A DNA stretch of 63,666 bases, counting the filler, from Candidatus Rokuibacteriota bacterium (GTDB lineage Bacteria; JAUVQV01; DATDCY01), in assembly GCA_031406795.1 (NCBI GenBank). It is 6 parts of 6 records of this genome, joined end to end, with 100 filler letters (N's around TTAATTAATTAA, not from the genome) between each part and the next. Parts side by side here need not be neighbours in the genome. Positions count along the whole stretch, not along the records: positions 22,689 to 45,197 come from JANOHV010000056.1; 5 more parts are not named here. One strand, given 5' to 3'. Under the pieces are notes generated by a model, which saw only the letters and a list, made by a program, of their open reading frames with translations, was not told where the DNA came from and did not search any database. Numbering within the stretch: the first letter of the stretch is position 1; every line of letters starts with the position of its first letter. Below, piece after piece: positions 11,731 to 61,892 of the stretch. A program made the position numbers and the translations under genes.

Positions 11731-13569
11731 TCAGCTTCCGCGGACCGCCTCGAGCTCCTCCCAGCGACGGTACGCCTCCGCAAGCTCCTGATCGAGCTGC
11801 GCGAGCCGCGCGGTCACTTTCGCCACGGCGTCCTTCGCGGTGCGGTAGTAGTTCGGGTCCGCCAGGGTCAGGTGCAGGGTCTCGCGCTCCATCTCCAGTT
11901 CGTTGATCCTCTCCGGCAGGGCCTCGAGCTCGCGGACTTCCTTGTAGGATAACTTTTTCGGCTTCGCGGGCTTTCCCGGCGCCGCCGCGCCGGCCGGCAG
12001 GACCGCGCTCTTCGGCGGCGGCGCGCTCCTGGCCGCCTGCTGTTTCTCGCTCTCCGCCACCGCCGCGGCCTGCCGGATCCAGTCGTCGTAGCCGCCGACG
12101 TACTCCCGCACCTCGCCGTCGCCCGCGAGCACCAGCGTGCTGGTCACCACGTTGTTCAGGAACTCCCGGTCGTGGCTCACGAGCAGCAGCGTCCCGGCGT
12201 ACTCCTGCAGCAGTTCCTCGAGCAGGTCCAGCGTCTCGACATCAAGGTCGTTGGTCGGCTCGTCCATCACCAGGACGTTGGAGGGCCGGGTGAAGAGCTT
12301 GGCCAGCAGCAGGCGGTTGCGCTCACCGCCCGAGAGGATGCGCACCGGACTGCGCGCCCGCTCCGGCGTGAAGAGGAAATCCTGCAGATAGCCGATGATG
12401 TGCCGCGGCCGGCCGTTGATGGTGACCGTGTCGTTCCCCTCGCCGACGTTCTGCTGGACGGACTTGTCCAGATCCAGCTTCTCCCGCAGCTGGTCGAAGT
12501 AGAGCACCTCCAGCCGGCTGCCGAGCTTCACCGTCCCGTGCTGCGGCGCCAGCTCCCCGAGCAGCAGCCGCAGCAGCGTGGTCTTGCCCGAGCCGTTGGG
12601 GCCGATGATGCCGACCTTGTCGCCGCTGATGATCGTGGTCGTCAGGTTGGCGATCACCGGCCGGCCGCCATAGCCGAACGTCGCCCCCTGCGCTTCCACC
12701 ACCACTTTGCCGGAGCGCTCGGCGTCCTGGATCTGGATCCTCGCCGTGCCCACCCGCGTCCGCCGCGCCCGCCGCTCCTCCCGCAACGCCTGCAACGCCC
12801 GGACCCGTCCTTCATTGCGCGTGCGGCGCGCCTTGATCCCCTGGCGGACCCAGACCTCCTCCTCGGCCAGCTTCTTGTCGAAGAGCGCCTGCCGGGTGAT
12901 CTCCGCGGCCAGCAATTCCTCCCGCCGCGCAACGAAGGCGTCGTACCCGCAGTCGAAAGCGAAGAGACTCCCCCGGTCCAGTTCGGCGACCCGGTTGGAG
13001 ATCCGGCGCGCGAAGGCGCGATCGTGCGTCACGAACATCAGCGTCCGGACCTGCTTGAGCAGGAAGCCCTCGAGCCACTCGATGCTCTCGATGTCCAGGT
13101 GGTTGGTCGGTTCGTCGAGCAGCAGGATGTCCGGGGCCGACGCCAGCGCCCGCGCCAGCATCGCGCGGCGCTTGGTGCCGCCGGAGAGCGTCTCGAAGGG
13201 CGCCTCCCCTTCGAGCTTGAGTCGGGACAGGACGCGCTCAACCGCCTGGTGGTGACGCCAGCTGTCGGCGTTCTCGGAATGATCGTGGCCATCCCCAGTC
13301 CCGCCGGCCACGACCTCGAAAACCGTCCCGGTCAGTCCCTGGGGAATCTCCTGGGAGACCAGCGCCACCTTCAACCCCTGCTGGCGAAAGATCTCGCCGC
13401 CGTCGGGGTTGATCTCCCCGGTAATCAGCTTCAGCAGCGTCGATTTCCCGGTGCCGTTGCGCCCCATCAGGCAGAGCCGCTCGCCCGCCTCGAGCTGCAG
13501 GTTGATTCCATCCAACAGCGGCGGCCCGCCGAAGGCCACGCTGACGCTTCGCAAACTGATCAAGGCCAT
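11731..13569 (-). CDS. uup: ABC-F ATPase Uup
   Basis: Two ABC domains, EEVWVRQGIKARRTRNEGRVRAL linker, C-terminal KLSYKE coiled coil. Confidence 0.9.
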   Translation of the reverse strand: MALISLRSVSVAFGGPPLLDGINLQLEAGERLCLMGRNGTGKSTLLKLITGEINPDGGEIFRQQGLKVALVSQEIPQGLTGTVFEVVAGGTGDGHDHSENADSWRHHQAVERVLSRLKLEGEAPFETLSGGTKRRAMLARALASAPDILLLDEPTNHLDIESIEWLEGFLLKQVRTLMFVTHDRAFARRISNRVAELDRGSLFAFDCGYDAFVARREELLAAEITRQALFDKKLAEEEVWVRQGIKARRTRNEGRVRALQALREERRARRTRVGTARIQIQDAERSGKVVVEAQGATFGYGGRPVIANLTTTIISGDKVGIIGPNGSGKTTLLRLLLGELAPQHGTVKLGSRLEVLYFDQLREKLDLDKSVQQNVGEGNDTVTINGRPRHIIGYLQDFLFTPERARSPVRILSGGERNRLLLAKLFTRPSNVLVMDEPTNDLDVETLDLLEELLQEYAGTLLLVSHDREFLNNVVTSTLVLAGDGEVREYVGGYDDWIRQAAAVAESEKQQAARSAPPPKSAVLPAGAAAPGKPAKPKKLSYKEVRELEALPERINELEMERETLHLTLADPNYYRTAKDAVAKVTARLAQLDQELAEAYRRWEELEAVRGS

Positions 13570-21906: not shown

Positions 21907-22588
21907 ATGAAGAGGCTGCTCGAGGTTGTTTTCTGTGCCGTATTCCTGTCAGTCGTTTCAATGGCTGGGGTGGGTGCAAGTGCGGCGACAAGTCCATCGC
22001 AACCGGCGGCGATCAATGCGGAGAATACCGGCCCGCCCGTGGTGTCCTACTCCGGCGGTCTGCTGTCGGTCACGGCAAAGAACGCCGAGATCCGCGAGGT
22101 CCTGACCAAGATCGGTGCGGCAGTCAACGCCGAGGCCCGAATCTCCGAGGAGATTTCTGGAAGGGTCACGATTTCATTTCAGAATCTCGGTCTTGAAGAA
22201 GGCCTTGCCAGGCTTGTTAGTGGGGAAGGGACCGGGATCGTGCTGGGCTACGACAAGAAAGGCACCGTGAAGCTGATCATGCTCTCCAGGAGAGCCGCGG
22301 GCCAGACGGAAAGTGTCGTCAAGGTCAGAAAGGTGAGGGACTACTTCTCGCCAGCAGATCAAGCCTCGAGCATGAGTTTGGACGAGGTCAAGGACTTGAC
22401 GAAAGTGCTTCGAGACCCAAAGAAGAAAGACAAGTGGGTGCGAGCGGCGAAAAAGATCATCAATATTAAAAAACCAGAGGCCAAGCCGTATCTCAAGGAA
22501 TTGATGCAGCACGAAGATGATTTTGTCCGGGATCAGGCGATGAACGAATATGCAATGTTGGTCGACGTCGAAGATGCCGATTTCATCC
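21907..22588 (+). CDS. Exported protein with secretin/TonB N-terminal-like domain and HEAT-like repeats (truncated at contig end)
   Basis: Signal peptide, LSVTAKNAEIREVL...VTISFQNLGLEEGL, then VRAAKKI...LKELMQHEDDFVR. Confidence 0.55.
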
Positions 22589-22688
22589 NNNNNNNNNNNN
22601 NNNNNNNNNNNNNNNNNNNNNNNNNNNNNNNNTTAATTAATTAANNNNNNNNNNNNNNNNNNNNNNNNNNNNNNNNNNNNNNNNNNNN
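22589..22688. other. Artificial contig linker
   Basis: N-run + TTAATTAATTAA + N-run, 100 bp. Confidence 0.98.

Positions 22689-23564: not shown

Positions 23565-23568
<4 letters not shown>
23098..23568 (+). CDS. Hsp20/alpha-crystallin family protein
   Basis: [32 protein letters not shown]. Confidence 0.9.
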
Positions 23569-25990
<2,422 letters not shown>

Positions 25991-25994
<4 letters not shown>

Positions 25995-26016
25995 GGGCGG
26001 GGTTCGACCCCCGCCC
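25991..26016 (+). repeat. GTAG-type REP-like palindrome overlapping the lon stop codon
   Basis: GTAG-GGGCGGGG-TTCGAC-CCCCGCCC. Confidence 0.6.
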
Positions 26017-26088
26017 GGACCGAGGACGAGCGCCGGAACGACGCGCTCCCCGTTGCTCCGCATCCGCCGGGGTGCTACGCTTCCCTCC

Positions 26089-26412
26089 ATGAAGACGCAC
26101 GAGGAAGTCGACCGCAGGAGCCTCGCCCTCGCGCGTGTGGTGGTCGAGGTCATCGACCGGGATGCTTCTCTGGCAGGCCTCTCCCGGGCACGGTGTACGT
26201 GCGCGCGCTGGCTTCACGACGCCCCATCGCCGGCAATCGCGGAATGGCACGGCATTCTGCAGCGGGAGTGGCCGGAAATCCGGCCTATCCTGCTTGATCC
26301 GGGGGAGCGCGGACGGCGCCTGCGCCAGAGCAACCCCTTCTGTGGCATCCTATCTCCCCGGGAACGCTGGGAGATCTACCGGCGATTCGCGCGTGAACAT
26401 CAAGCAGCTTGA
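26089..26412 (+). CDS. Small hypothetical protein, putative antitoxin partner of the downstream NTase
   Basis: MKTHEEVDRRSLALAR...LRQSNPFCGILSPRER; overlaps the next gene; extended -10 TGCTACGCT 7 nt before ATG. Confidence 0.65.
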   Translation: MKTHEEVDRRSLALARVVVEVIDRDASLAGLSRARCTCARWLHDAPSPAIAEWHGILQREWPEIRPILLDPGERGRRLRQSNPFCGILSPRERWEIYRRFAREHQAA

Positions 26413-26917
26413 ACACGTTCTGCGCGCCAGCGGCAGCATCACCAAGTGCCGCGAGATCGTCGTCATCGGCAGCCAGTCGCTGCTCGCGTCCTTTCCCGGC
26501 GCTCCCGACGCCCTGCTCGGTTCGATGGAGGTCGACTGCTACCCGCTTGACAACCCGGCCCTGGCGGATCTGATCGACGGTTCGATCGGCGAGCTCTCGC
26601 CGTTCCACGAGACCTTCGGCTATTACGCGCACGGGATCGGGCCGGAGACCGCAGCGCTACCCTCTGGCTGGGGCACGCGGGTCGTCCGTCTCCAGAACGA
26701 GAACACCGGCGGGACGATCGGCCTGTGCCTCTCCCCCGCCGACCTCGCGGTGAGCAAGCTTCTCGCCGGCCGGGAGAAGGACATCGACTTCGTGCGCGCG
26801 ATGCTCAAGGCAGGCGCCACAGACGAGCCGGCGCTCCGATCGTTGGCGTCCGAACTGAATCCGGAACAGGCCGCACGACTCGACGTGGCGCTGACAGTCG
26901 GCCTGCGCCCAGACTGA
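26393..26917 (+). CDS. DUF6036-like nucleotidyltransferase (putative TA component)
   Basis: IVVIGSQS...SMEVD, DGSIGELSPFHETFGYYA, SKLLAGREKD. Confidence 0.75.
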   Translation: MNIKQLEHVLRASGSITKCREIVVIGSQSLLASFPGAPDALLGSMEVDCYPLDNPALADLIDGSIGELSPFHETFGYYAHGIGPETAALPSGWGTRVVRLQNENTGGTIGLCLSPADLAVSKLLAGREKDIDFVRAMLKAGATDEPALRSLASELNPEQAARLDVALTVGLRPD

Positions 26918-26934
26918 AACCTCACGTTGAAAGT

Positions 26935-27090
26935 GGAGTCGGCGCAGAACCTCGCCGACCTCGAGGAGCCGCCGCCGAAGGTCCGTCGGAGCATGACGTT
27001 CGTGCCCGTCGAGTCGATGGACGAGGTGCTGGCGACGGCGCTGGCGACGAAGGAGAATGGCGCGGGGGCGCCGTGCGGCGAGGGCGATCC
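26935..27090 (+). repeat. lon-derived fragment 1
   Basis: 26946-27090 matches lon 25801-25945 (135/145 by hand); preceded by GGAGTCGGCGCAG = lon 25490-25502. Confidence 0.95.
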
Positions 27091-27186
27091 TCCAAACCAG
27101 CCGGGCGCCGGCGAGACGATCGTCCTGGGAATCCGGAAGAATGAGACTCGACCTGGCGGTGATCAAGTCCTTTCCCCGTGACGGAG

Positions 27187-27735
27187 TTACCGGTTCGAAA
27201 GAACCTCGGTAAGTCGATCCGAAAGGAAGTGCTTTCGAGCCAAGGTCCGCAGCTTCCGCCGGTCCGCCGCCAAATAGAGTTCCCGGATGTCCAGAGCGTC
27301 CTGCGCCGCCAGGGGAAGCAACTTGAGAAGTATCAGATACTCAGGTGTCACAACCTTAACGCGCTTGCGGAAGACCCGTGCCGTGGCGGCAGCGCGGATG
27401 GCTTCCTCGGCAAGCGGGAACCCCGCCGTGCCGATGAGATCGACCTCGATCTGTCCGAACCGAAATGACAACTTTTCTTTGATGTTGGTCCGGGCGCTTC
27501 CCCTCTTGACGGCAATCCGCTTCCGGAGTCGGGAGGTCAGAAACGCGGCAACTTCCACCCACGTTTTTTCCGGGGCGAGCATGACGGCGAGATCGACGTC
27601 GCGAGTCGTGCGCGGTCGGACCCACGCCGAGAGGGCAAGGCCACCGAGGAGGGCATAGTCCGCGCAGAACTTCTCACGCCGGAGATCCTCCATCAAGTCG
27701 ATTGCCTTGACGAAGGCTTCGACTACCGGGAGCAT
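27187..27735 (-). CDS. Nucleotidyltransferase (DUF6036/AbiEii-like)
   Basis: YALLGGLAL...PRTTRDVDLAV, IEVDLI, EYLILLKL...QDALDI. Confidence 0.8.
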   Translation of the reverse strand: MLPVVEAFVKAIDLMEDLRREKFCADYALLGGLALSAWVRPRTTRDVDLAVMLAPEKTWVEVAAFLTSRLRKRIAVKRGSARTNIKEKLSFRFGQIEVDLIGTAGFPLAEEAIRAAATARVFRKRVKVVTPEYLILLKLLPLAAQDALDIRELYLAADRRKLRTLARKHFLSDRLTEVLSNR

Positions 27736-27866
27736 CACCCAGCGCGGCGTCCGGCCAGGGACTTCTTCAAGAGGAGTGAAAGCTGAAGCAATTGCAGGGC
27801 GACCTCAATATTCTTGCCGTTCGGTCGGGGTGCTGCCCGTTGAGGTGTTTCAGCCTGACGTGCCAT
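27735..27866 (-). CDS. 43-aa leaderless ORF, putative partner of the NTase
   Basis: MARQAETPQRAAPRPNGKNIEVALQLLQLSLLLKKSLAGRRAG; its TGA overlaps the NTase ATG; promoter directly upstream. Confidence 0.6.
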   Translation of the reverse strand: MARQAETPQRAAPRPNGKNIEVALQLLQLSLLLKKSLAGRRAG

Positions 27867-27871
27867 GGGGC

Positions 27872-27900
27872 ATTGTCACGCCGAAGGCTGCGGCTGTCAA
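27872..27900 (-). promoter_or_regulatory. Sigma70 promoter (leaderless)
   Basis: TTGACA-N17-GACAAT-N5-ATG on the minus strand. Confidence 0.7.
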
Positions 27901-27935
27901 CGCCCGCCGACACGCCCGCCGACACGCCCGCCGAC
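27900..27935 (+). repeat. 12-bp tandem repeat x3
   Basis: ACGCCCGCCGAC three times. Confidence 0.9.
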
Positions 27936-28116
27936 TGCCCAGCCGCCCTTGTTCTGCAGCCATCGCCTCTCCAACAACCGGGACGCCATATCCAGTCGCT
28001 GCTCGCGTTCTTTCCCACCCCGCCGCTGGAGACGGACGCGTCCCCTGTTCTATCTGAGTTTGACCTCCTTCGACCCGGGGCGTATCTCGTTCTTACCAAG
28101 TCTTACGGAGGTGGCG

Positions 28117-28386
28117 ATGGCGACGACGATCCTCTCCAGCAAAGGGCAGCTCATCATCCCCAAGGCGGTGCGGTCGAGGCATCACTGGCAAGCCGGTACG
28201 GTGTTCGTGGTCGAGGAAACGGAGGACGGTCTCCTGCTCAAACCGCAAAAACCCTTTCCGACGACCCGGGTCGAGGATGGACTGGGCTGTACCGGCTATC
28301 AGGGGCCAACCAGGACTCTCGAGGAGATTCAGGAAGGACTCGATGCCGCCGTCCGATCCGCGTGGCGCGGGGGCCGGCCGGCGTGA
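28117..28386 (+). CDS. AbrB/MazE/SpoVT family antitoxin
   Basis: TILSSKGQLIIPKAVR...DGLLLKP; GGAGGT RBS; upstream TCTTAC-N4-TCTTAC repeat (28091-28106). Confidence 0.88.
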   Translation: MATTILSSKGQLIIPKAVRSRHHWQAGTVFVVEETEDGLLLKPQKPFPTTRVEDGLGCTGYQGPTRTLEEIQEGLDAAVRSAWRGGRPA

Positions 28387-28765
28387 TCATCCTCGACACC
28401 AATGTCTGGGTGCGTTACGTCACGAACGACGACGCGGGCCAGGCTGCAAGAGCGGTGCGTCTGATTACGACGGCGACCGCGATTTTTGTTCCCAAGACGG
28501 TGCTCCTGGAGTTGGAGTGGGTCCTCCGGGCGGTCTATGGCCTGCCCGCCGAAGCCGTGGAGCGGCTATCTTGCACATCCTCGGCCTGCCAATGGTCCAG
28601 CCGGAACAGCCGGATGCCGTCGCGGCGGCTCTGGCGCACTTTCGGGGAGGACTGGATTTCGCGGATGCCCTGCACCTGGTCTCAGCCGATGGTGTCTTCT
28701 ACACCTTCGACGAACCATGCGTCAGGAAGGCAAGGGCTCGCGGCCTGAGGGTGACGCGCGTCTAG
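28383..28765 (+). pseudogene. vapC: VapC/PIN toxin with a 1-bp deletion frameshift near 28565
   Basis: IILDTNVWVRY...ELEWVL in one frame and AILHILGLP...DFADALH...YTFD in another. Confidence 0.8.
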
Positions 28766-28778
28766 CTTGGAAGACGAC

Positions 28779-28812
28779 CGCGATGACCGGCGAGATCACG
28801 CTGCGCGGGCGC
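28779..28812 (+). repeat. lon-derived fragment 2
   Basis: Matches lon 25688-25721 (32/34; both differences synonymous; [11 protein letters not shown]). Confidence 0.92.
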
Positions 28813-28869
28813 ACGACAGGTTTATTTTGATTGCAATTCGTAATATTAGTATTAATATGTGGATCAGTA

Positions 28870-30003
28870 ATGACTACTTTAATAGACAGGTCAATCAAAC
28901 TAGAATCGTCACTCGTGCCTGGCAAGGTCATGATCATCTACGGGCCGCGCAGGGCCGGCAAGACTACCCTTCTCAAATCGTACCTTGATTCCTGTGGCCT
29001 GCGCTACCGGCTTGAGACGGGAGACGATATTCGCATCCGACACCTTCTCGGATCAGGCGACCTGAGACAGATCGTCGCAATGGCCGAGGGCTTCGAGCTG
29101 ATCGCCATTGACGAGGCGCAACAGATCCCTGGGATTGGCATGGGTCTGAAGATTCTGGTCGACCATCTCCCCCACCTGAGGATCGTTGCCACCGGCTCTT
29201 CGTCCTTCGACCTCGCCGCCGCGGTCGGGGAGCCGCTCACCGGACGCAAGCAGACTCGTACCCTCTACCCCATCAGTCAGTTGGAGTTGAACCAGACCTA
29301 TAACCGCTACGACCTGCGTCAACGACTCGAAGAGTTCTTAGTCTATGGTTCCTATCCGGAAATCGTGGTAACCGCGGGCAGAAGGGAAAAGATCGAACTG
29401 TTGGAGGAACTCTCCGGCTCCTATCTGCTGAAAGACGTTCTTGCACTGGATCGGATCCGTTCTTCGCGCACCCTGGTCGATCTGTTGAAGCTAATCGCCT
29501 TTCAGGTAGGGAACGAAGTGTCGCTGCACGAACTGGCGACGCAGGTTAAACTGGACGTGAAAACGGTGGGGCGCTATCTGGACATCCTGGAAAAGGCTTT
29601 CGTCATCGTCCGCGTAGGAGGCTTCAGCCGCAACCTCCGCAGCGAGGTGACCAGCAAGGCCAAATACTATTTTCTGGACAACGGTGTGCGCAATGCCGTC
29701 ATCGGACAGTACAACCTGCTCGATTCGCGCAATGACATCGGCGCCCTGTGGGAGAACTTCGTAGTCTCCGAGCGCCTGAAAAAACGATCTTACACGGGGA
29801 TCTACGGCACCATTCATTTCTGGCGAACCTACGATGGGAAAGAGATCGACTATGTCGAGGAGCGCGACGGCGGATTGTTCGGCTTCGAGTGCAAATGGTC
29901 GCCAGACCAGCGGGTCAAGCCGCCGAAAAAATGGCTGGCGTCCTATCCGGGGGCGTCCTTCGAACTGATTACTCCGGAAAGCTACCTCGATTTCGTGGCG
30001 TAA
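28870..30003 (+). CDS. AAA_14 ATPase with DUF4143 domain
   Basis: [53 protein letters not shown]...ECKW. Confidence 0.9.
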
Positions 30004-30026
30004 ACCCGGCCGGTTGACGCACCGCT

Positions 30027-30055
30027 CCGGCGGGGGGGGGATTCCCAAGGACGGC
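30027..30055 (+). repeat. lon-derived fragment 3
   Basis: Exact 16-mer GATTCCCAAGGACGGC (30040-30055) = lon 25601-25616; upstream CCGGC-G-run resembles lon 25590-25600 (PAGAIPKDG). Confidence 0.7.
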
Positions 30056-30136
30056 GTGCGTTTCCATGGATATTCGTCCCTGCGATTGGTCGTTAAACGG
30101 ACGCTTGAGCGCGCACATGTCGAGGTATATTTTCAT
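30041..30136 (-). pseudogene. N-terminal fragment of a PIN-domain protein
   Basis: [31 protein letters not shown], then family similarity is lost. Confidence 0.75.
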
Positions 30137-30197
30137 TGTGCACGTATAATCACTCGCCAGGAATGGAGCAACAAGTGCCGAAGGTCCTCTGTCGTTC

Positions 30198-30263
30198 ACC
30201 GGCCAGCTCGGGGACGCGATGAAGGAGTCGGCGCAGGCCGCGGTGAGCTACGCTCGCTCGCGC
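30198..30263 (+). repeat. lon-derived fragment 4
   Basis: Matches lon 25464-25529 (62/66; [22 protein letters not shown]). Confidence 0.95.
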
Positions 30264-30457
30264 AGCTGAGGCCGCGGAGCCGCCCCTTCCGCCGCACCAC
30301 CGCGTCCCTCTTACTCCACGGCGTGTGGAGCAGACTCCACATCTCTTGTCGCGGACATGGCCGGATGACCCGCGCGACCCTCCCCTGATCGGCGTATAAT
30401 CCGTCGGAATGCCGCGACGGCGCCCACCGGTCGAGCGACGGGCGCCCGAACAGGCTC

Positions 30458-30473
30458 TGGCATGATTGATGCA
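30458..30473 (+). promoter_or_regulatory. Sigma54 promoter for the pilin cluster
   Basis: TGGCATG-ATTG-ATGCA, 26 nt upstream of the first pilin ATG. Confidence 0.7.
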
Positions 30474-30499
30474 AAAAGGATCAACCGGAGGTTGATGAA

Positions 30500-31006
30500 A
30501 TGACCGGATCGAGAAGACAGGCGGGATTCAGTCTGGTCGAGGTGATGATCGCCGTCTCCATACTCGGCATCGTGGCGGCCCTCGGGATTCCCTCGATGAT
30601 CAAGGCGATGCCCCGCGTCAAGCTCGCGAACAACACCGGGACCCTGGCCAACGAAATCGCGAGCCTGCGGATGCAGGCGATCGCGAAGAGCCTGGAGTTC
30701 CGGATGGTCTTCAACGTGGCCAACGACAGTTACACGCTCGAGAAGGCCAACGGCGGCGCGTGGACGCTCTATTCGACCTCGACGACCTTCGGCACGGACA
30801 TCACGAGCGTCTCCGGGTTCACCCCCGACGCCGACACGCTGATCATCAGGAGCAACGGGACGGCCAGCGTGCCGCTGAGTTCGCAGGCGATCATCGTGCT
30901 CGAGACGCCTGACGGTGGGGAAATGGCGAAGCGGATCCTCGTCCAGGCCACCGGGCGGGTTTTCGTCCAAAAGCGCAACATCGACGGTTCCTGGGTCAAC
31001 GAATAG
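30500..31006 (+). CDS. FimT/GspH-like minor pilin
   Basis: Class III signal RQAG|FSLVEVMIAVSILGIV; LRMQAI; C-terminal ILVQATGRV. Confidence 0.85.
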   Translation: MTGSRRQAGFSLVEVMIAVSILGIVAALGIPSMIKAMPRVKLANNTGTLANEIASLRMQAIAKSLEFRMVFNVANDSYTLEKANGGAWTLYSTSTTFGTDITSVSGFTPDADTLIIRSNGTASVPLSSQAIIVLETPDGGEMAKRILVQATGRVFVQKRNIDGSWVNE

Positions 31007-31018
31007 GAGCATGCGGCC

Positions 31019-31471
31019 ATGAAAACCCTTCTGCGTCGCACGGACGGCTTCACCCTCGTCGAGAGCATGATTGCGCTGTTCTTCCTCTCCTTCATGGTGG
31101 GCGAAATGGCGATGGTCGACATCGGCGCCCAACGCTCCGCCCAGCTCGCCAAGCAGTTGACGAAGGCCAACGCGTACGCCGACGAGGGGATGGAGAAGAC
31201 CCGCAACATCCTGTACGCCAAGCTCCAGCTGCCGAGCGGCAACATGAACGAGAGCTGCGCGACCGCCGGCAACGTCGTGACCTGCACCTCGCTGGCCCCG
31301 ATCGAGGGGCTCTTCACCCGCCAGCGCATCGTGACGCCCCTCGACGCCAATAACGCCGTGACCACGCTGAGTGCGAGCGGCAAGACCGATGTGGTCGTCA
31401 CCGTCACGTTCACCGACGCCCGGGGGGCCCCGCAGCGGGTTTCCGTGGCCAGCGTCATGACCAAGTACTAG
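31019..31471 (+). CDS. PilV/GspI-like minor pilin
   Basis: RTDG|FTLVESMIAL; A..YA.EGMEK.R; VVVTVTF. Confidence 0.8.
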   Translation: MKTLLRRTDGFTLVESMIALFFLSFMVGEMAMVDIGAQRSAQLAKQLTKANAYADEGMEKTRNILYAKLQLPSGNMNESCATAGNVVTCTSLAPIEGLFTRQRIVTPLDANNAVTTLSASGKTDVVVTVTFTDARGAPQRVSVASVMTKY

Positions 31472-31500
31472 CCGACCGCCGCCGGCAAGGGGGAGCGACC

Positions 31501-34500
31501 ATGAGTGCTATCGGACGGAAGCAGGGACGGTCGGGGCCGTTGCGCAATGCGCGCGGCTACACGCTGGTCGAGATGATGATCGCCCTCGGCGTTGCGGTCG
31601 TCGTCGGCATGGGGCTGTATCAGGTCTTCAGGGCGACGCAGCGCTCGTCCGTCGGGCAGCGGCTGCGCAACGACGTGCAGAGCGGCTGCACGGCCGCGAT
31701 GGAGCAGATGAAGAGCGAACTGGCGCTCGGCGGCTACCGGGCCATCGATCCGGCGTCGCCGATCACCAACGCCGCCGCCGGCAGCATCACCTTCGAGTAC
31801 TGGGACGATCAGGCGGAGCCGGTCGCCGGCCGCAACAACAACATCCGGGTGGTCTATCGCCGGGCGACCACCGTCGAGTCGGGGGGCGGTCCCCAGGGCA
31901 TCAAGCCGGGCGACCTGGTGCGGGAAATCTACCGCTACTCGACCCCGGCCGGCCCCTTCGACGCCACGCCGACCAAGCAGGTGCTGGTCGACAACGTCCT
32001 GGCGTTGGGCTTCACGTACATGCAGTCCGACAACACCACCTGGGACGGGATCAGCCTCGGCGCGATCAAGACGATCCGCCCGACGCTGACCTGCGAGTCC
32101 AGCCGGCCGGACCCGAGCACGGACAAGATGCTGAGGATCACGCTGACCGGCGAGGTCCGAGCCCGCAACGTCGGCGTTTCGGCCACCCCGAAGGACACCA
32201 CCCCCCCCGCGACACCGGGCGGCGTGGTGGCCTGGGACGAGGGCCGCTGCGGCCAACTTCAGCTGCGCTGGTACGGGAACACCGATACCGACCTCGAGGG
32301 GTACGTCATCTACTCCGGGCTGGCGGCCGGCGCGTATACAAAGCGCACCCGGATCACCCGCCCGCCCCAGTCGGCCGCCAACACGAAGGAGTTCCAGACG
32401 CTCACCGGCCTGACCTCCGCCAAGTCCACGGACCTCCCCGCCTCCCAGCCGATGCACTACATCGCCATCCAGGCCTTCGACAAGGCGGGAAACGTGAGCC
32501 CCACGTTCTCGACCCCGGTCTACGGCAACCCGACGGGCAGCCGGCGGAGCGAACCCGGGACGGCGGCGGAATCCGACACGACGATTCACCCGCTGCTTCC
32601 CGCCGCGCCGGTCCTGACGGCGGCGCCGACCCCCGGCCCCACCGACAGCAGCATCACCCTGACCTGGACCCCGCCGGCGGTGTCGGGGCTGGTCGGCTAC
32701 CGCCTCTACCGCGGCGAGACCCCCGGGTTCACCGTCAACGACGCGCCGGGCACGGGAAACCGGATCGCCAACGAGACGCAGCTGGGCGCCGACCAGCTCA
32801 GCTGGGTCGACGACGACAGCAAGCCCCTCCCCGGCGGCGGGCTCTCGGGCTGCAAGCCGTACTACTACAAGATCTGCGCGGTCATCTGCGACACGAGCCT
32901 GATCGCCTCCTACGGGACGGCGCAGTTCAGCGAGGCCACGGCCACGCCGACCGACAACGAGAAGCCGCCGGCGCCGAAGCTCACGGCCGCCCCCGGCTGG
33001 CAGCGCATCATCCTGAACCTCACCAACCCGGCGCGGACGGGCATGGACGCGACGCCCGACTTCGACTACACGCAGATCTTCTTCAGCACCATCGCCGTCC
33101 TGACGATGGACGCCGGCGGAAACGTCCTGGACGGAGGCGCCCCCGCGCGGCTCATCCCGGACCCCATCAGCACCGACAAGGGGACGTTCCGGCAGGACGG
33201 CGCCACGGGGGGCACGATCAACTTCGACGACGAAACCCTTGTCCTCCCCTCCGGCGGCCTGGCCTCGCCCACGCTGACCGCCGGGACCTACTACTTTCTC
33301 GCGGTGGCCCACGACCTGTGCGGGAACATCTCGCTGAAGGAGGCCCAGGCCGAAGCCAAGGCGGACCAGTGCAACGACTGCGACGGCGTTTCGGCGGGGC
33401 AGGACAAGTGCGTCGACGCGCCCTACCCGCCGCTCAACGTGCGCGTGGACACGTCGATCGCCGGCAACGGCTGCTTCGGCGCGACGTGGATCGCGTGGGA
33501 TTTCCCGGACAGTTACATCATCGATCACCCAGACTTCAAGGCCTTCCGCATCCTGCGCCGGGAACTCACCGGCGCTAGCACGACCTTCGACGATTCGGTC
33601 GCACCGATCAAAGTGGTCAGCGACGGCTGGACCGCCAAGACCATCCTCGACGGCGACTGCCAGGACGGTCTCGTCTACTCCTATCGGGTCGAAGCCTACG
33701 ACTGCTACTACTTCGAATGGGTCTTCTCCGGCGCATTCAGCACCGGCAACGACCCCGCGAACAACATCTCCGCGGCGAAGTTCCCGGCCGCGCCTTTCGG
33801 GACGCCGCCCTACCTGACCGTCGACCTCAATGGCGTCTCGCTCGGCGCGCCGGTGCACGACACGTCCGTGCCGGTGCTGACCGGCAGGATCTCGGGGCCG
33901 GACGGCATCCTCGGGAACCCCGACGACACCGGCGATTTCCTCCACGACAAGATCACCTTCGGGATCCGCAACACGAGCAGAGCCGCCGCCGCGAACCGCC
34001 TCAGGCTCGACGGCCTCACGGCCGCCTCGATCTGGGACAATACCAACGCCTTCCTGCAGAAGCTCGACGTCGGTGACAACGCCACCTCGCCGATCACTGC
34101 CGCGTTCGACCAACCGGACGCCACGCTGAACCACGGGTCGACCGGGAGCGTCATCACCTTCACGACCAGGCCCCCGCTGGACCCCCTGGACGACAAGATC
34201 CCGGTCCAGACCGGCTTCATGAATTCCGACCGGAGCCGGGACCGCAACAGCGACATGCGGACCAACTGGATCGACTACACCTTCGCGTACTCGAACCCGA
34301 GCACGGGCGCCGAGACGTGCACCGCGCGCAGCACGTACTACACGCCGCTCGGGCCCTACATCTACGGCGTCAGCCAGGACAAGCCCTTCTTCGGCACGCT
34401 CGCCTGGGCGGTTCACGGCGAGGAGGGCGGGAATTTCATCGACGCGGTGACCGTGCCCGGAGGGGTCGACGTGACCGTCTTCGCCGAGGTTCTCGAAGAC

Positions 34501-36681
34501 AGCGGCGCCAGCATCCTGCCCAACAACGTGCGTCTCTACAGCTACGTCGACACCGTCAAGGCCCACACCTCGGAGCCGCCGTTGTCGCTGTTCACGTCGG
34601 TGCCGATGACGCGGGGACTCGGCAACCAGTGGTTCGCGACGATCCCGGCGACCAGCGATGCCAATGTCTGGTACCACATCATCGCGCAGGACACCCAGGG
34701 GAACTTCGACCGCGACCCGGAGCCGTGGGCCGGCTCCTACCAATACTTCCAGCAGGCCCCGAACTTCTGCGAGACCATCCCCAACCCGCCGACGCTCACC
34801 AACCTGACCGTCAGCGGCGGCAGCGTGATCCTGACCTGGACCGAGCCGACCACGAACGCGACCCCCGCCGGCTCGACTTACAACGACGCCAAGGGCTACA
34901 AGCTCTACCGCAACCGCAACGACGGGACCGGCTGGGTGCTGCACTTCTTCCACGACCCGACGACGAAACTGTTCCCCGTCGGCACCACGACCTACACCGA
35001 CGGCGGGGTGTTCGCCCTCGACACCCTGAGATACGACTACCGCCTGACCGCTCTCGATCTCTGCTCGCCGACGCCGAACGAGAGCGCGCCATCCAACGTG
35101 CTGACCGAAGACGTGGAGAATAACTGCAGCAACACGCCGAGCCCGCCGGTGATCATGCTCGGAACCTCCAGCGACGTCGGCGGCAGCGTCACGCTGACCT
35201 GGTCCAAGCCGACGACGAACGCGCCGCCGTCGATTGTGCCGCTGACCGACCTCGCCGGCTACGAGGTCTGGCGCCAGAGAAATACCGAGCCCCTGGTCAT
35301 CGTGCCGGCCTCGCCGGGCACCACGTGCGGCACGATCACCAACCCGAACACCCTGACCTGCACGGACTTCGGGCCGACCTCGAGCGGCATCAGGAACAAC
35401 GTCTTCAAGTACTTCGTCAAGGCCTTCGACAGCTGCACGACGAGAAACATCAGCGCCGGGTCGGACGTCTTCACGGAGAACGAGAGCAACAACCCCTGCC
35501 TCGACACCCCGAGTGCGCCCGCGATCCTGACCGGGCCCGGCGGTTCGACCTCGTCGTCCAGCGGCGTGCTGCTGAAGTGGAGCGCGCCGACCGTGAACAA
35601 CGAGGTCTTGCCGATCGCGCCGACGACCTATGGCGACCCCGGCGGGTACCGTGTCGAACGCTGCGCCACGGGCTGCACGTCCGATGCGAACTGGACGCAG
35701 ATCGGCTCCACGGACTCCGTCACGCTGGCCTTTTCCGACGTGCCCGCGAACATCGGCGAAGTGGCCTACCAGTACCGGGTCAAGGCCTTCGACACCTGCG
35801 CCCTCCCCGGCCCGAACGTCAGCCTGCCTTCGACCCCCTTCTTCGAGAGCTTCGTCGGCGCCTGCGGGACAATCCCGCAGCCGGCCGTGATCATCACGGC
35901 GGGCGCGGGCACTTCGAGCTTCTCGAAAGACGGCGTGATCCTGAACTGGAACGCGCCGACCGCCAATGCCACGCCCGCGGGACAGCCCTTCTCCGACCCC
36001 GGCGGCTACCGCGTCTACCGCCGCCAGCAGACGTCGGCCGGTCCGCCCGCGGCCTTCACCGCCTGGACAAACATCGCCGAGCTGACGAGCCCGTCCTATC
36101 TCGGGTCCGGACCCTTCACGTACACCGACACCACGATCGCGGACACCCCCACGATCACCAACATCGGGGATCCCGCGAAGCAGTACTCCTACCACGTGGC
36201 GGCCATCGACAACTGCTCGTGCCCGCCGACACCGCCGGCGCCGTTCGCCTGCCCGAACGAGAGCGGCGTCTCCAACATCTTCACGGAGACGTATACCGAT
36301 GCCTGTGCCCTGCTCACGACGCCCGCGGCGCCGTCCGCTCTGACGGCAACCAAGGTCGGCGGGTGCACCGGCGGCAGCGCCGCGACGGCGATGGACCTGG
36401 CCTGGAGCGCGTCTGCGGGAGCCCCGAGCGGATATCGGGTCTACGGCATCAGCTGCACTAACGGCACCTCCTGCACTGGCACGCCAAACATCCGGCTCAA
36501 CACGACGGACCCGCTCACCGTGAGAACGTTGAGACACAGCATCCCGCCGACCAAGATGAACTCGGTGCAGTGGCGTTACGGAGTCAAGGCCGTGAACAAC
36601 AGCGCCGGGTGCACGGATTCCAACAAGTGGAAAGAGAGCGCCTTCAGCAACTTCGTGATCGATGAGTGCCTCCTCCCCTAG
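31501..36681 (+). CDS. Giant PilW/GspJ-like pilin fused to about nine FN3-like repeats (1726 aa)
   Basis: NARG|YTLVEMMIAL, MKSELALGGY, EVRARN; then repeats P..P...L.W..P...GY..Y...Y.V.A.D.C. Confidence 0.85.
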   Translation: MSAIGRKQGRSGPLRNARGYTLVEMMIALGVAVVVGMGLYQVFRATQRSSVGQRLRNDVQSGCTAAMEQMKSELALGGYRAIDPASPITNAAAGSITFEYWDDQAEPVAGRNNNIRVVYRRATTVESGGGPQGIKPGDLVREIYRYSTPAGPFDATPTKQVLVDNVLALGFTYMQSDNTTWDGISLGAIKTIRPTLTCESSRPDPSTDKMLRITLTGEVRARNVGVSATPKDTTPPATPGGVVAWDEGRCGQLQLRWYGNTDTDLEGYVIYSGLAAGAYTKRTRITRPPQSAANTKEFQTLTGLTSAKSTDLPASQPMHYIAIQAFDKAGNVSPTFSTPVYGNPTGSRRSEPGTAAESDTTIHPLLPAAPVLTAAPTPGPTDSSITLTWTPPAVSGLVGYRLYRGETPGFTVNDAPGTGNRIANETQLGADQLSWVDDDSKPLPGGGLSGCKPYYYKICAVICDTSLIASYGTAQFSEATATPTDNEKPPAPKLTAAPGWQRIILNLTNPARTGMDATPDFDYTQIFFSTIAVLTMDAGGNVLDGGAPARLIPDPISTDKGTFRQDGATGGTINFDDETLVLPSGGLASPTLTAGTYYFLAVAHDLCGNISLKEAQAEAKADQCNDCDGVSAGQDKCVDAPYPPLNVRVDTSIAGNGCFGATWIAWDFPDSYIIDHPDFKAFRILRRELTGASTTFDDSVAPIKVVSDGWTAKTILDGDCQDGLVYSYRVEAYDCYYFEWVFSGAFSTGNDPANNISAAKFPAAPFGTPPYLTVDLNGVSLGAPVHDTSVPVLTGRISGPDGILGNPDDTGDFLHDKITFGIRNTSRAAAANRLRLDGLTAASIWDNTNAFLQKLDVGDNATSPITAAFDQPDATLNHGSTGSVITFTTRPPLDPLDDKIPVQTGFMNSDRSRDRNSDMRTNWIDYTFAYSNPSTGAETCTARSTYYTPLGPYIYGVSQDKPFFGTLAWAVHGEEGGNFIDAVTVPGGVDVTVFAEVLEDSGASILPNNVRLYSYVDTVKAHTSEPPLSLFTSVPMTRGLGNQWFATIPATSDANVWYHIIAQDTQGNFDRDPEPWAGSYQYFQQAPNFCETIPNPPTLTNLTVSGGSVILTWTEPTTNATPAGSTYNDAKGYKLYRNRNDGTGWVLHFFHDPTTKLFPVGTTTYTDGGVFALDTLRYDYRLTALDLCSPTPNESAPSNVLTEDVENNCSNTPSPPVIMLGTSSDVGGSVTLTWSKPTTNAPPSIVPLTDLAGYEVWRQRNTEPLVIVPASPGTTCGTITNPNTLTCTDFGPTSSGIRNNVFKYFVKAFDSCTTRNISAGSDVFTENESNNPCLDTPSAPAILTGPGGSTSSSSGVLLKWSAPTVNNEVLPIAPTTYGDPGGYRVERCATGCTSDANWTQIGSTDSVTLAFSDVPANIGEVAYQYRVKAFDTCALPGPNVSLPSTPFFESFVGACGTIPQPAVIITAGAGTSSFSKDGVILNWNAPTANATPAGQPFSDPGGYRVYRRQQTSAGPPAAFTAWTNIAELTSPSYLGSGPFTYTDTTIADTPTITNIGDPAKQYSYHVAAIDNCSCPPTPPAPFACPNESGVSNIFTETYTDACALLTTPAAPSALTATKVGGCTGGSAATAMDLAWSASAGAPSGYRVYGISCTNGTSCTGTPNIRLNTTDPLTVRTLRHSIPPTKMNSVQWRYGVKAVNNSAGCTDSNKWKESAFSNFVIDECLLP

Positions 36682-38364: not shown

Positions 38365-39813
<1,449 letters not shown>

Positions 39814-39873
39814 GCCTCTGCCTCCTCTTCTGCCGTCACAAGCCTCATGAGTCCTGCGGGCGAAGCCCCCGCG

Positions 39874-42129
39874 CTAGGCGGCGCCCGGCAGCACGACCAC
39901 GAACGTGGCGCCGTGCCCCGCGCGGCTGGTAAACCGGATGCTTCCCCCGTGCTCGCGCACGATCTTGTCGGCGATCGGCAGGCCGAGCCCGGTCCCCGCC
40001 TCCCGCGTAGTGTAGAAGGGATCGAAGATGCGCCCCGCGACCTCCGGGGCGATCCCCAGGCCGCTGTCCGCAATGAAGATCATGACGGGGGCCGGCTCCC
40101 CGTTGCCGGACACCCGCCCGCGCGCCAGTCGGACCCGCAGCCGCCCGCCTTCCGGCATCGCCTGCATGCCGTTCATCAGCAGGTTCAGAAGCGCTTGGTG
40201 CAGCTGCGCGGCGTCGCCCATGACGCGCACCGGGGCGGCCGGCGGCCGGAACTGCGCGGTGATCCCCTGCTCCCGCAGCGAGGCTTCGAGAAAGAGCAGC
40301 AGGTGCGCGAGCAGGTCGCCGAGGTCGACCGCGGCGCGCGTCGGCGGGGTCTCGCGCGAGAGCAGCCGCAGGCGCCTGATGATGCCCTCCATGCGCCCGA
40401 TGCTCTCGGTGATGATGCGCAGCAGCTCGCGGTCCCGGCCCGCGCTCGTCGAGGTCAGGTACTGGACGCTCGAACTCATCGCGGTCAGCGGGTTGCGCAG
40501 CTCGTGCGCGACCTGGGCGGAAAACTCCCCGAGCGTGGTCAGACGGTTGAGACGCTGCTGCTCGGCCGCGAGATGCCGCTCGTCGGTCAGGTCATGGAAG
40601 AGGACGATCCCCTGCGCGCCGCGGCCCTCCGCCGCGGGGATGCGCGAGAGCACGTAGCCGAAGACCGACTCGCGGCCGTCGGCGAACACCGCGCGAATCT
40701 CCCGGCGGTTGGCCGCGGGTTCCCCGCGCCGGAACGCGCCGGCGACCTCCGCGGCGAACGCGGCCGGCAGCGCTTTCTCCAGGGGCCGTCCGGCACTCGA
40801 CGGCGCCGTGCGCAGCAGCCTCAGCGCCGCAGGGTTGATGCGGGTGATCAGCAGGTTCTCGTCGAAGGTCACCAGACCGCCGATCATGTTGTCGAGAACC
40901 GCCCGCTGCTGCTGCTCCAGCTCGCGCACCTGCGCTTCGGCCTGGCGGCGAACCGCGATCTCGCGACCGAGGGCCTCGATGGTCGCCTGCAAATCGCGGG
41001 TACGATCCGCGACGCGCACCTCCAGCGCCTGCCGCGCCTCCTCGAGTTCGCGCTTGAGGCTCTCGCGCGAGACAAAGGCGTCGCGGACCTGCTCGGTCAG
41101 TCTGCCGATTTCGTCAGGGCCGTCGGCGACGATCCCCTCCGCGGGGGCGCTGCCGGCGCCGACCCGCTGGACGAAGGCGCCCAGACGGATCACGCGGCGC
41201 AGGACCGTCCGCTCGATGAGCAGGACGTAGGCGCCGCCGGTCGCCAGGATGACGAGGCCGAACGCTACCGCGAGAATCTTCAGGCTCAGCAGCCCGTTGG
41301 CGTAGCCGGCGCGGTCCAGCGTCAGCCGCAACACGAAAGCCGGCCGGCCGGCGATGTCCCGCAGCAGGGCGTACCCGGTCATGATCTGCGCGTTCGGGCG
41401 CCTGATGGAGAACTCCTCGCCGGCCGAGAGCGCCGACAGGGCGTCGCGCATGTCGGCGGCGCGCAGCGTTCCGGCGTCGGCGCGAACGAGTTCGGGCGCA
41501 CCGCCCGAGGTGGTCAGCCGCATCATCACATCGTCCTCGAGAAACCGACCCAGCAGCAATGTCCGGCGGCCGGATCCCACGGCGTTGCCGCCGGCGATCG
41601 GGCGCGACACGAGCAGCAGCGGCGTGGCCCCGGACGGGAGGATGCCCCTGACGCCGTCGGGGTGCCCGTCCAGCGCGAACGGACCGCGGTTGTCGCGCAG
41701 GTACTCCAGCAGCAGGAGCGGCAGCGGGGCGACCGCCGCGGGCGCCTGGCCGAAGCTGACGCCGATGAGGGGTTCGCCGCGCTCATCGAGGACCGCCGCG
41801 AGTGCGATGCGTTCGCTTGCCCCCCGGGCAGCGGCGGCGAAGCGCTCGCGGAAGCCGCCCGCCGACACACCGGGCTCGAAGCGGCGGATCTCCTCCGAGG
41901 CGGCGTGGTCCGCCGTCGTCGCGGCCAGATCGTCGAGCAGCATCGCGATCCGTCCGGTGACGCCGCGGAGCGCCTGCGCCATCTCCTGGTCCTCGCTGCG
42001 CAGATACCCGTTGAGCACGAACCCGCGCAGCGTCAGCACCAGCACCGAGATGGCGAAGCCCAGCGTCAGCGCGAGCGCGAAGAGCGTCTTCGCGCGGATC
42101 CCCATCCTCCCGAAACCCGTCTGGCGCAT
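39874..42129 (-). CDS. Sensor histidine kinase (CHASE4-like, HAMP, PAS, HisKA, HATPase)
   Basis: Two TM segments, DEIGRL, VAHELRNPL, NLLMNG, DSGLGI, FDPFYTT, GTGLGL. Confidence 0.92.
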   Translation of the reverse strand: MRQTGFGRMGIRAKTLFALALTLGFAISVLVLTLRGFVLNGYLRSEDQEMAQALRGVTGRIAMLLDDLAATTADHAASEEIRRFEPGVSAGGFRERFAAAARGASERIALAAVLDERGEPLIGVSFGQAPAAVAPLPLLLLEYLRDNRGPFALDGHPDGVRGILPSGATPLLLVSRPIAGGNAVGSGRRTLLLGRFLEDDVMMRLTTSGGAPELVRADAGTLRAADMRDALSALSAGEEFSIRRPNAQIMTGYALLRDIAGRPAFVLRLTLDRAGYANGLLSLKILAVAFGLVILATGGAYVLLIERTVLRRVIRLGAFVQRVGAGSAPAEGIVADGPDEIGRLTEQVRDAFVSRESLKRELEEARQALEVRVADRTRDLQATIEALGREIAVRRQAEAQVRELEQQQRAVLDNMIGGLVTFDENLLITRINPAALRLLRTAPSSAGRPLEKALPAAFAAEVAGAFRRGEPAANRREIRAVFADGRESVFGYVLSRIPAAEGRGAQGIVLFHDLTDERHLAAEQQRLNRLTTLGEFSAQVAHELRNPLTAMSSSVQYLTSTSAGRDRELLRIITESIGRMEGIIRRLRLLSRETPPTRAAVDLGDLLAHLLLFLEASLREQGITAQFRPPAAPVRVMGDAAQLHQALLNLLMNGMQAMPEGGRLRVRLARGRVSGNGEPAPVMIFIADSGLGIAPEVAGRIFDPFYTTREAGTGLGLPIADKIVREHGGSIRFTSRAGHGATFVVVLPGAA

Positions 42130-42296
42130 GTCCCCCTCGTGGTGCCGTTGCGGTAGTCTATCACCATCGAGTGAGGCCACCGGGGAGACTCTCTTCAAGC
42201 GTGAAACGACTTTCAAGGACGCACATTTCAATCGATCGCACCAAGGAGGCAGATCCTGGAGGATATCTTCCGGCATCCGGTGTATCATCAGACGTC

Positions 42297-58290: not shown

Positions 58291-58291
58291 G

Positions 58292-61417: not shown

Positions 61418-61892
61418 ATGGTTAGTACAGCCGATATTCTCAACGCCAAAGTTCTGATCGTCGATGATCAGGATGCCAATGTGCAGCTGCTCGAGGCAGT
61501 GCTCAGCGGCGCCGGCTATGCACGCATCACGTCGACCATGGATCCGCACACCGTCTGCGCCCTGCATCGCGAAAACCACTACGACCTGATCCTGCTCGAT
61601 CTGCAGATGCCCGGCATGGATGGATTTCAGGTGCTGGAGGGCCTGAAGGCAATAGAAACGGACAGCTATGTTCCGGTCCTCGTGATCACCGCTCAACCGG
61701 GCCACAAGGTGCGGGCACTGGAAGCCGGCGCAAAGGATTTCATCAGCAAACCGTTAGATCTGGCCGAAGTAAAGACACGCATCCACAACCTGCTGGAAGT
61801 GCGGCTGTTGTACAAGCAGATCGAAAATTACAGCAAGATGCTGGAACAGACGGTGCAGGAACGGACGGGCGAACTCCTCAGGGCGAACGAGC
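61418..61892 (+). CDS. Response regulator receiver protein (3' truncated)
   Basis: VLIVDDQ, LLDLQMP, DFISKP, coiled coil LEQTVQERT. Confidence 0.9.

Follow-up and report, generated by a model that had tools for sequence, protein, structure and literature searches.

Fragments of the lon 3' end at the borders of toxin and defence cassettes in an uncultured Rokuibacteriota bacterium

Phages and genomic islands integrate at the 3' ends of genes and restore the gene they enter, and several elements can accrete in tandem at one attachment (att) site. In homology-facilitated illegitimate recombination, the illegitimate joint usually deletes DNA of the recipient. Hotspots without mobile genetic elements (MGE) follow another route in which double recombination swaps the variable interval without a scar, according to the mechanism outlined in a 2017 study (PMC5635113). 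In transformation merodiploidy, donor fragment ends that pair at non-allelic repeats can create duplications, as Johnston et al. 2013 (PMC3784515) set out. Here we describe a stretch of 63,666 nucleotides (nt), hereafter the window, from assembly GCA_031406795.1 of Candidatus Rokuibacteriota bacterium, an uncultured sediment bacterium. The 4.5 kb between the stop codon of lon and a pilin-like operon is filled with toxin-antitoxin (TA) and defence cassettes and with fragments of the lon 3' end. The evidence comes from a single metagenomic contig, supplemented by short contigs of relatives and by individual protein sequences.

The MGE-free hotspot with recombination in a flanking core gene is the closest description of the locus. 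As in the hotspots of the 2017 study (PMC5635113), content varies between two conserved core loci, recognizable mobile-element genes are lacking and the flanking core gene, here lon, carries signs of recombination. The difference from those hotspots is that the insertions beside lon appear to be duplicative, each leaving a truncated end of the flanking gene. Because each insertion would leave such an end, the cassettes would pile up and their order would be recorded.

The positions 23565-26050, which contain lon, were compared with positions 26051-31500 by blastn. The first-pass annotation, made by inspection of the window, had reported four pieces in lon orientation downstream of the gene, all at cassette boundaries. 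The search bears this out with four plus-strand matches of 93-95% identity, every one of them at a cassette border. The gene and its fragments are as follows.

23565-25994, plus strand: intact lon, 809 amino acids; the last ~530 nt are the source of the fragments and the putative anchor region
26940-27181, plus strand: piece A, a 5'-truncated lon 3' end (lon 25795/25801-25945) with its own tail to a stop codon at 27181
28779-28812, plus strand: piece B, lon 25688-25721 (34 nt, 94.1%, E 5e-10)
30027-30055, plus strand: piece C, with a blastn core at 30035-30055 equal to lon 25596-25616 (21 nt, 95.2%, E 3e-4)
30198-30263, plus strand: piece D, lon 25464-25529 (66 nt, 93.9%, E 5e-25)

The order of the fragments along the chromosome (A, B, C, D) is the reverse of their order in lon, a point absent from the first-pass annotation. 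They do not overlap, and gaps of 60-73 nt separate them in lon coordinates. Each fragment lies 13-31 nt after the stop codon of a cassette or directly abuts a promoter. The next-best blastn matches of lon are 17 nt or shorter with E values of at least 0.066. The same kind of search at 149 other lon loci (870 kb of downstream sequence) and 128 upstream flanks (840 kb) rendered four weak matches of 24-29 nt downstream and four of 20-27 nt upstream. Because the control loci gave only this weak background, four matches within 4.3 kb are far above chance, although piece C taken alone is marginal. The cluster of fragments is clearly real and non-random, and lon loci in general do not have it. None of the 149 more distant lon loci screened has an array of lon fragments, thus the arrangement is not common at lon.

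Piece A is the longest fragment. By blastn, 26946-27090 corresponds to lon 25801-25945 over 145 nt (93.1%, E 2e-60), and a repeat search extends the match to 26940-27090 (151 nt, 92%). The 12 differences from lon are spread 4/3/5 over the codon positions and cause seven amino acid changes, which suggests that piece A has drifted as a pseudogene; a weak match to Lon_C remains. Piece B is identical at 34 of 34 positions to the lon alleles of three related contigs (L083, L085 and L091) and at 32 of 34 to the resident lon. The left junction of piece D is the same as in a longer lon copy on the related contig L084 and in a complete copy known as a protein, P0009. Piece C grows to 29 nt (30027-30055, equal to lon 25590-25616) when an indel in a poly-G stretch is allowed. 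A run of about nine G residues occupies its left edge (30027-30040), where lon has a shorter G/C stretch.

The right side of piece C is fused to the remnant of a PIN-domain gene. The fusion falls within a 17-nt stretch in which 13 positions are common to lon and the intact PIN gene of L084. This agreement marks the border as a microhomology deletion joint, where the remainder of a lon copy was lost together with the partner gene and the greater part of the PIN gene. The open reading frame (ORF) that spans piece C, the PIN remnant and piece D had no match in the protein search, so this joint is without independent support.

The cassettes between lon and the pilin-like operon, numbered towards lon, are given below together with a relic of one of them.

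26089-26917, plus strand: cassette 4, a 107-amino acid ORF of no family (26089-26412) overlapping a DUF6036 nucleotidyltransferase gene (26399-26917)
27187-27866, minus strand: cassette 3a, an AbiEii-type nucleotidyltransferase gene (27187-27738) preceded by a 43-amino acid ORF (27735-27866)
27992-28016, plus strand: relic of DUF6036, 25 nt, 24/25 identical to 26473-26497, in the spacer between cassettes 3a and 3b
28118-28765, plus strand: cassette 3b, an 89-amino acid ORF (28118-28386) whose stop codon overlaps the start of a PIN-domain gene (28383-28765)
28870-30003, plus strand: cassette 2, an AAA_14/DUF4143 ATPase gene, candidate defence gene PDC-S01 in PADLOC
30039-30136, minus strand: remnant of cassette 1, the first ~30 codons of a PIN gene, with a promoter region that continues to ~30197

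Most of the gene labels in the first-pass annotation stand: DUF6036 (Pfam, E 2e-9), the AbiEii-type nucleotidyltransferase (E 3e-7), AAA_14 (E 7e-22) with DUF4143 (E 3e-40), PIN (28383-28568, E 2e-7) and the PIN remnant. Its AbrB label finds no match in Pfam, NCBIfam, PADLOC or PDB sequences, and in the same four collections the 107-, 89- and 43-amino acid ORFs and a 69-amino acid partner ORF in L084 match no family. The PADLOC match of cassette 2 to PDC-S01 is strong (E 6e-140). Recognisable toxin or defence domains thus comprise, as predicted from sequence, PIN, AbiEii, the DUF6036 nucleotidyltransferase and PDC-S01 in the window, and a HEPN-like protein with a minimal nucleotidyltransferase (MNT) in the related contig L081. 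The cassettes occur in both orientations. The proposal that most cassettes have a promoter-like sequence of their own is weakly supported, as the region has two sigma-70-like sites against 0.7 expected; a promoter-like site for cassette 3a lies at 27900-27872. In the spacer that separates the AbiEii cassette from the relic of DUF6036, a 12-nt unit occurs three times in tandem (27900-27945).

Signs of erosion are found in several places. The PIN gene of cassette 1, which matches the intact 141-amino acid PIN gene of L084 (there with the 69-amino acid partner), is cut to ~30 codons. The second PIN gene (28383-28765) is split by a 1-nt frameshift near 28565 (28560-28570), which could make it a real pseudogene or could be an assembly error. 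The 25-nt relic of DUF6036, which had also escaped the first-pass annotation, is a third sign. Cassette 2 has a G+C content of 53-58% compared with 66-72% in lon.

Relatives were sought in collections of genomes, metagenomes and proteins. The closest Lon in the genome collection, from metagenome-assembled genomes of Nitrospirota, has a protein identity of only 67%, so that collection gives no close relative. The metagenome collection contains 12 contigs of the same lineage. In 11 of the 12, the C-terminal part of Lon is 88-97% identical to that of the window, while L090 has 76%. Sequence 3' of lon is present in 11 of the contigs; L086 is too short on that side and was left out of the content classes.

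The site varies among these contigs. Two of the 11 have an empty site (L087 and L089), where the pilin block begins 25-50 nt past the lon stop codon, and the remaining contigs show at least five different contents. In L082, lon is followed by the 107-amino acid/DUF6036 pair (84% nt identity to cassette 4), a 23-nt scrap of lon (25503/25504-25526) and the pilin block. In L084, lon is followed by ~700 nt of cargo, the minus-strand 141-amino acid PIN gene (Pfam PIN) with its partner, and then by a lon copy that starts at 25465 and reaches the end of the contig (146 nt or more). The cases in L082 and L084 come from a comparison separate from the screen of 149 loci, in which the 23-nt scrap falls below the threshold. 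L081 and L085 have the HEPN-like protein and the minimal nucleotidyltransferase, L083 and L091 a sigma-54 response regulator with a kinase, L088 an unrelated gene and L090 a different gene that overlaps the lon stop codon. Minus-strand matches of 25-26 nt to lon, which fall within the response-regulator gene in both L083 and L091, were put down to chance.

Between lon and the pilin-like operon there is thus nothing in L087 and L089, the DUF6036 pair in L082, the response regulator and histidine kinase in L083 and a 4.3-kb stack in the window. On this comparison the interval is a strain-variable hotspot of acquisition, and repeated gain of cassettes at the lon end is supported. The variation also disposes of a simpler origin. 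A single decayed lon duplication, which would have left a fixed content, is ruled out by the variable relatives together with the reversed order of the fragments, because insertions and deletions alone cannot reverse that order and one colinear copy therefore cannot yield the window.

With the ORF of piece A and one matching protein as queries, a protein collection yielded further copies of the lon end. Fifteen sequences were read, one of which is the window's own product; these Lon-end proteins (P numbers) are known here from protein sequence alone. Six are unambiguous copies of the lon 3' end elsewhere in the lineage, 5'-truncated or internally deleted: P0003, P0007, P0008, P0009, P0010 and P0068. 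P0009 has the PIN-promoter junction of L084 (99% over the first 96 residues), and its lon part extends from 25467 as far as the lon stop codon. P0010 has the junction of P0009 and L084 behind another upstream sequence, which weakly resembles window 27854-27991 (E 8e-4). Unrelated N-terminal residues are joined to lon at ~25808 in P0003 and P0007, and P0007 appears to run on past its tail into the motif that precedes the pilin gene, although the tblastn match behind this is weak (E 0.87). P0008 is without lon 25566-25807. P0068 begins near 25549 after unrelated residues and is missing 13 codons, namely the stretch between two similar short sequences in lon. Four other proteins (P0011, P0012, P0013 and P0015) are ordinary or ambiguous partial Lon sequences, and P0004, P0005, P0006 and P0061 are short ORFs beginning inside the lon end.

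The relatives therefore hold several independent truncated copies with different neighbours. When window and relatives are taken together, the left borders of the lon copies fall at no fewer than eight positions within ~350 nt (25465-25808), including ~25503, ~25549 and ~25808. An intact lon with a truncated copy at the far end of the cargo is represented by piece A, the L084 copy, P0009, P0003 and P0007. At least some of the gains were duplicative, with a complete lon, new cargo and a 5'-truncated copy of the lon end as the product.

The explanation that we favour, with moderate confidence, is that cassettes enter beside lon by recombination anchored in lon homology and completed by an illegitimate joint, and that the displaced truncated ends are later eroded. 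It builds on the fragments, the variable relatives with their empty site, the truncated copies that are full-length to the lon stop, a microhomology joint and apparently recombinant lon alleles. The incoming DNA would consist of a lon 3' segment and cargo, one side of which recombines with the resident lon. The other side would be joined illegitimately at microhomology, or through a second, shorter arm of lon homology. The product would be a complete lon, the new cassette, a 5'-truncated lon end up to the old stop codon and then the earlier content. Repeated entries would stack the cassettes with the newest beside lon, and deletions at microhomology would trim older lon copies and cassettes to short scraps.

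What we infer is the order in which these events took place, how the DNA entered and a rule for stacking. Under this rule, a unit would be added instead of substituted only if its lon arm meets no older fragment with which it overlaps. An overlapping older fragment would capture the right arm, and the cassettes in between would be replaced. Addition would be possible only where the older fragments end 5' of the start of the new arm. It follows from the rule that the lon fragments should form a non-overlapping tiling in reverse order, as they do in the window. A more specific version is possible and is put forward tentatively: TA and defence cassettes may circulate as integrase-free units that have a complete lon end at one flank and a short lon arm at the opposite flank, and that host recombination inserts. 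The pairing rule would then set stacking against replacement, and the reverse tiling would be a log of the order of insertion. The adjacent pilin-like operon is not evidence of competence.

The proposed entry shares with homology-facilitated illegitimate recombination, a process treated in PMC3240628, one homologous anchor (lon), a microhomology-type joint (between piece C and the PIN remnant) and independence of any element-encoded enzyme. The duplications in transformation merodiploidy (PMC3784515) span 100-900 kb between IS copies, whereas at lon only the end of one gene is duplicated, over a few hundred nt, and foreign cargo lies in between. A further difference, from homology-facilitated illegitimate recombination in general, is that the joint at lon must fall inside the recipient lon, upstream of the end of the anchor, and thereby duplicate the lon end.

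The lon end appears to recombine, and its alleles look like mosaics. The pairwise homoplasy index (PHI) for seven alleles over 24990-25940 was 0.372 compared with 0.463 in permuted data, and none of 2000 permutations was as low. The nearest allele to that of the window changes along the gene, from L089 or L083 (25420-25600) to none in particular (25601-25760) and then to L081 (25761-25912). A sliding comparison of identity between the lon alleles revealed no clean breakpoint. Piece D of the window and its counterpart in L084 have a common junction, yet each carries the allele-specific bases of its own genome, the L084 copy being identical to its own lon at 143 of 146 positions. This can be because the displaced copy consists mostly of the recipient's own lon or because of gene conversion, which look alike.

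Several observations weigh against accretion anchored on lon. Only the junction between the PIN promoter and piece D and the adjacency of lon and DUF6036 recur in independent contigs; the whole stack is found on one. Pieces B, C and D each require a later deletion of their own to become short. The reverse order of four fragments has a chance of 1 in 24 under random placement. The cassette with the most foreign G+C content, that of the AAA ATPase, is in the middle of the stack, which fits poorly with the newest cassette beside lon. PHI did not reach significance with 11 alleles across the final 520 nt (p 0.064) or with four whole-gene alleles (p 0.06). Finally, P0004, P0005, P0006 and P0061 could be ordinary lon genes split by frameshifts.

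A gene followed by cargo and a 5'-truncated gene end is also the classical footprint of integration at a 3' end. The stack could accordingly be what remains of integrase-carrying islands or prophages that entered site-specifically at the lon 3' end and accreted in tandem, with TA and defence genes and the attR-side scraps of lon surviving. TA modules typically survive the decay of islands, and L084 and P0009 have a full lon 3' copy behind a cassette. The search for the machinery argues in the other direction. No recombinase was detected by Pfam among all cassette ORFs and 10 flanking ORFs, while ORFs further out in the window were not scanned; nor was one present in the downstream parts read in L081-L084. 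The first-pass annotation had likewise noted the lack of integrase, transposase and attC. A repeat search, which used no dedicated attC model, found no attC-like inverted repeat at the cassette borders; the longest inverted-repeat arms are far apart and 70-86% complementary, and Rfam gave no match at E <=1.

The four fragments also have no common core, and the unit in L084 holds only ~700 nt of cargo. In the papers found, lon is nowhere named as attB, and a literature search whose scope did not extend to supplementary files found none describing lon as an integration target or such a tiling. Since a recombinase was not found, the fragments share no core and the left borders are scattered, site-specific integration is unlikely, and we consider decayed islands an improbable source of the stack. 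The locus resembles phage and island integration in the repeated layout of intact gene, cargo and 5'-truncated gene end, and differs in having no detected integrase, no common core, scattered borders and units down to one or two genes.

The first-pass annotation had seen the lon end as a recombination anchor and the stack as an integron-like array. The first part, repeated gain at the lon 3' end, is retained; an integron-like mechanism is not, as integrase, attC-like repeats and a shared core were not found. Like an integron array, the locus is a compact row of TA-rich cassettes of one or two genes beside a fixed point, with the newest probably nearest to it. Unlike an integron array, it has no IntI, attI or attC, scraps of a housekeeping gene serve as separators, and the cassettes lie in both orientations, seemingly with promoters of their own. 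'Integron-like' thus fits the layout and not the mechanism. The turnover of antitoxins by Lon had also been noted. Nothing ties this role of Lon to the arrangement and there is no evidence either way; small hotspots usually carry TA and defence genes in any case.

The shortness of pieces B (34 nt) and C (21-29 nt) and their position exactly at joints raise the question of whether the lon scraps had any part in the arrival of the cassettes. They might be by-products of local rearrangement, either tandem duplications or templated filler in microhomology-mediated repair, while the cargo turns over by double recombination in lon and on the pilin side. The 25-nt scrap of DUF6036, a gene other than lon, is of the same kind. 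The microhomology at the border of piece C and the PIN remnant and the deletion in P0068 of a stretch between two similar short lon sequences point to such repair as well, and MGE-free hotspots driven by recombination in flanking genes are documented (PMC5635113). What speaks against by-products is the junction of lon 25465 with the PIN promoter, which accompanies the PIN cassette both in the window and in L084, P0009 and P0010. Because this junction travels with the PIN cassette, the lon copy and its cargo are linked. The common strand of the fragments, their close placement behind cassette stop codons or against promoters, and the existence of full-length truncated copies agree with the linkage. 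We therefore regard local by-products as a rather doubtful explanation.

The window is derived from a metagenome, and the population has many variants of the site. An assembler could have threaded strain variants of the hotspot serially through shared lon k-mers, and the identity of piece B to the lon alleles of other strains would fit such a chimera. Only one sequencing run contains nearly all (0.97) of the sampled words of 25400-30600, and it may be the source; two others contain 0.58-0.59. However, non-lon sequence follows immediately after pieces B, C and D, and the path follows no lon allele. Because these pieces run at once into non-lon sequence, every joint between lon and other sequence must exist in some real genome. 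The repeats measure 21-66 nt and share no more than 93-95% of their positions with the resident lon, and independent contigs confirm the PIN-D junction and the adjacency of lon and DUF6036. A chimera is unlikely as the whole story, and its probability is in our view very low.

The surroundings of lon are a housekeeping neighbourhood. On the 5' side are tyrS, a TauE exporter, an acyltransferase, an FKBP isomerase and Hsp20, and on the 3' side the pilin-like operon is followed by a sigma-54 response regulator and a histidine kinase. Two further features delimit the variable interval.

25995-26016, no strand assigned: a GC-rich palindrome of 22 nt directly 3' of the lon stop codon, a terminator-like hairpin without a T run
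30317-31006, plus strand: native downstream border, or pilin block, made up of a conserved inverted repeat (30317-30345), a promoter-like sequence of the sigma-54 type (~30458-30475) and the first of the pilin-like genes (30500-31006, with an N_methyl motif)

Homology between the lon alleles stops at ~25912-25940, after which each allele has a C-terminal tail of its own. The tail past the protease domain (25912-25994; L081-L091) is wholly different from allele to allele, even between L082 and L084, whose lon ends otherwise hardly differ. Because the tails differ completely, the left edge of the variable region falls within the lon reading frame.

At the other border, the inverted-repeat motif lies 100-200 nt 5' of the sigma-54-type promoter-like sequence that precedes the pilin-like operon, in the window and in relatives. 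Motif and promoter-like sequence have counterparts at 1840-1870 and ~1984-2000 in L082, and further counterparts are found at 2906-2935 in L087 and at 660-690 in L089. The motif probably serves the sigma-54 response regulator encoded nearby as an enhancer site. The genes for this regulator and the histidine kinase separate lon from the pilin operon in L083 and L091, and in the window they come after the pilin operon. Window 38365-42288 and its homologues in L083 (982-4083) and L091 (522-2077) are 74-89% identical in nt over short stretches, and the different placement is a rearrangement within the lineage. After two pilin-like genes follows an ORF of 1726 amino acids (31501-36681) with an N-terminus like a prepilin-type leader, an unusual size for a protein of a pilus operon.

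Other repeats occur elsewhere in the window. Short direct repeats are found at 58717-58768 and 58291-58342 (52 nt, 94%) and at 13093-13135 and 5846-5888 (43 nt, 95%), and a 387-nt pair with 77% identity (61424-61810 and 60404-60790) resembles neighbouring paralogues. Paired runs of 44 N at 22589-22688 and in four further places cut genes; the ORF 21907-22644 and the start of the next gene, for example, are masked.

Hotspots of transfer without MGE are common, and gene gain in them has been argued mostly from statistics. At lon there are physical scars in the form of truncated copies of the anchoring gene, and these would make the number, order and borders of the events readable and comparable among strains of one natural population. 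Accretion of cassettes by recombination alone becomes testable in longer assemblies and in a transformable model organism. The genomic signature to screen for consists of same-strand fragments of a core gene's 3' end that alternate with small accessory genes. If the tentative version set out above applies generally, the ends of conserved genes could provide cassette arrays with 'poor man's attachment sites' in many uncultured bacteria.

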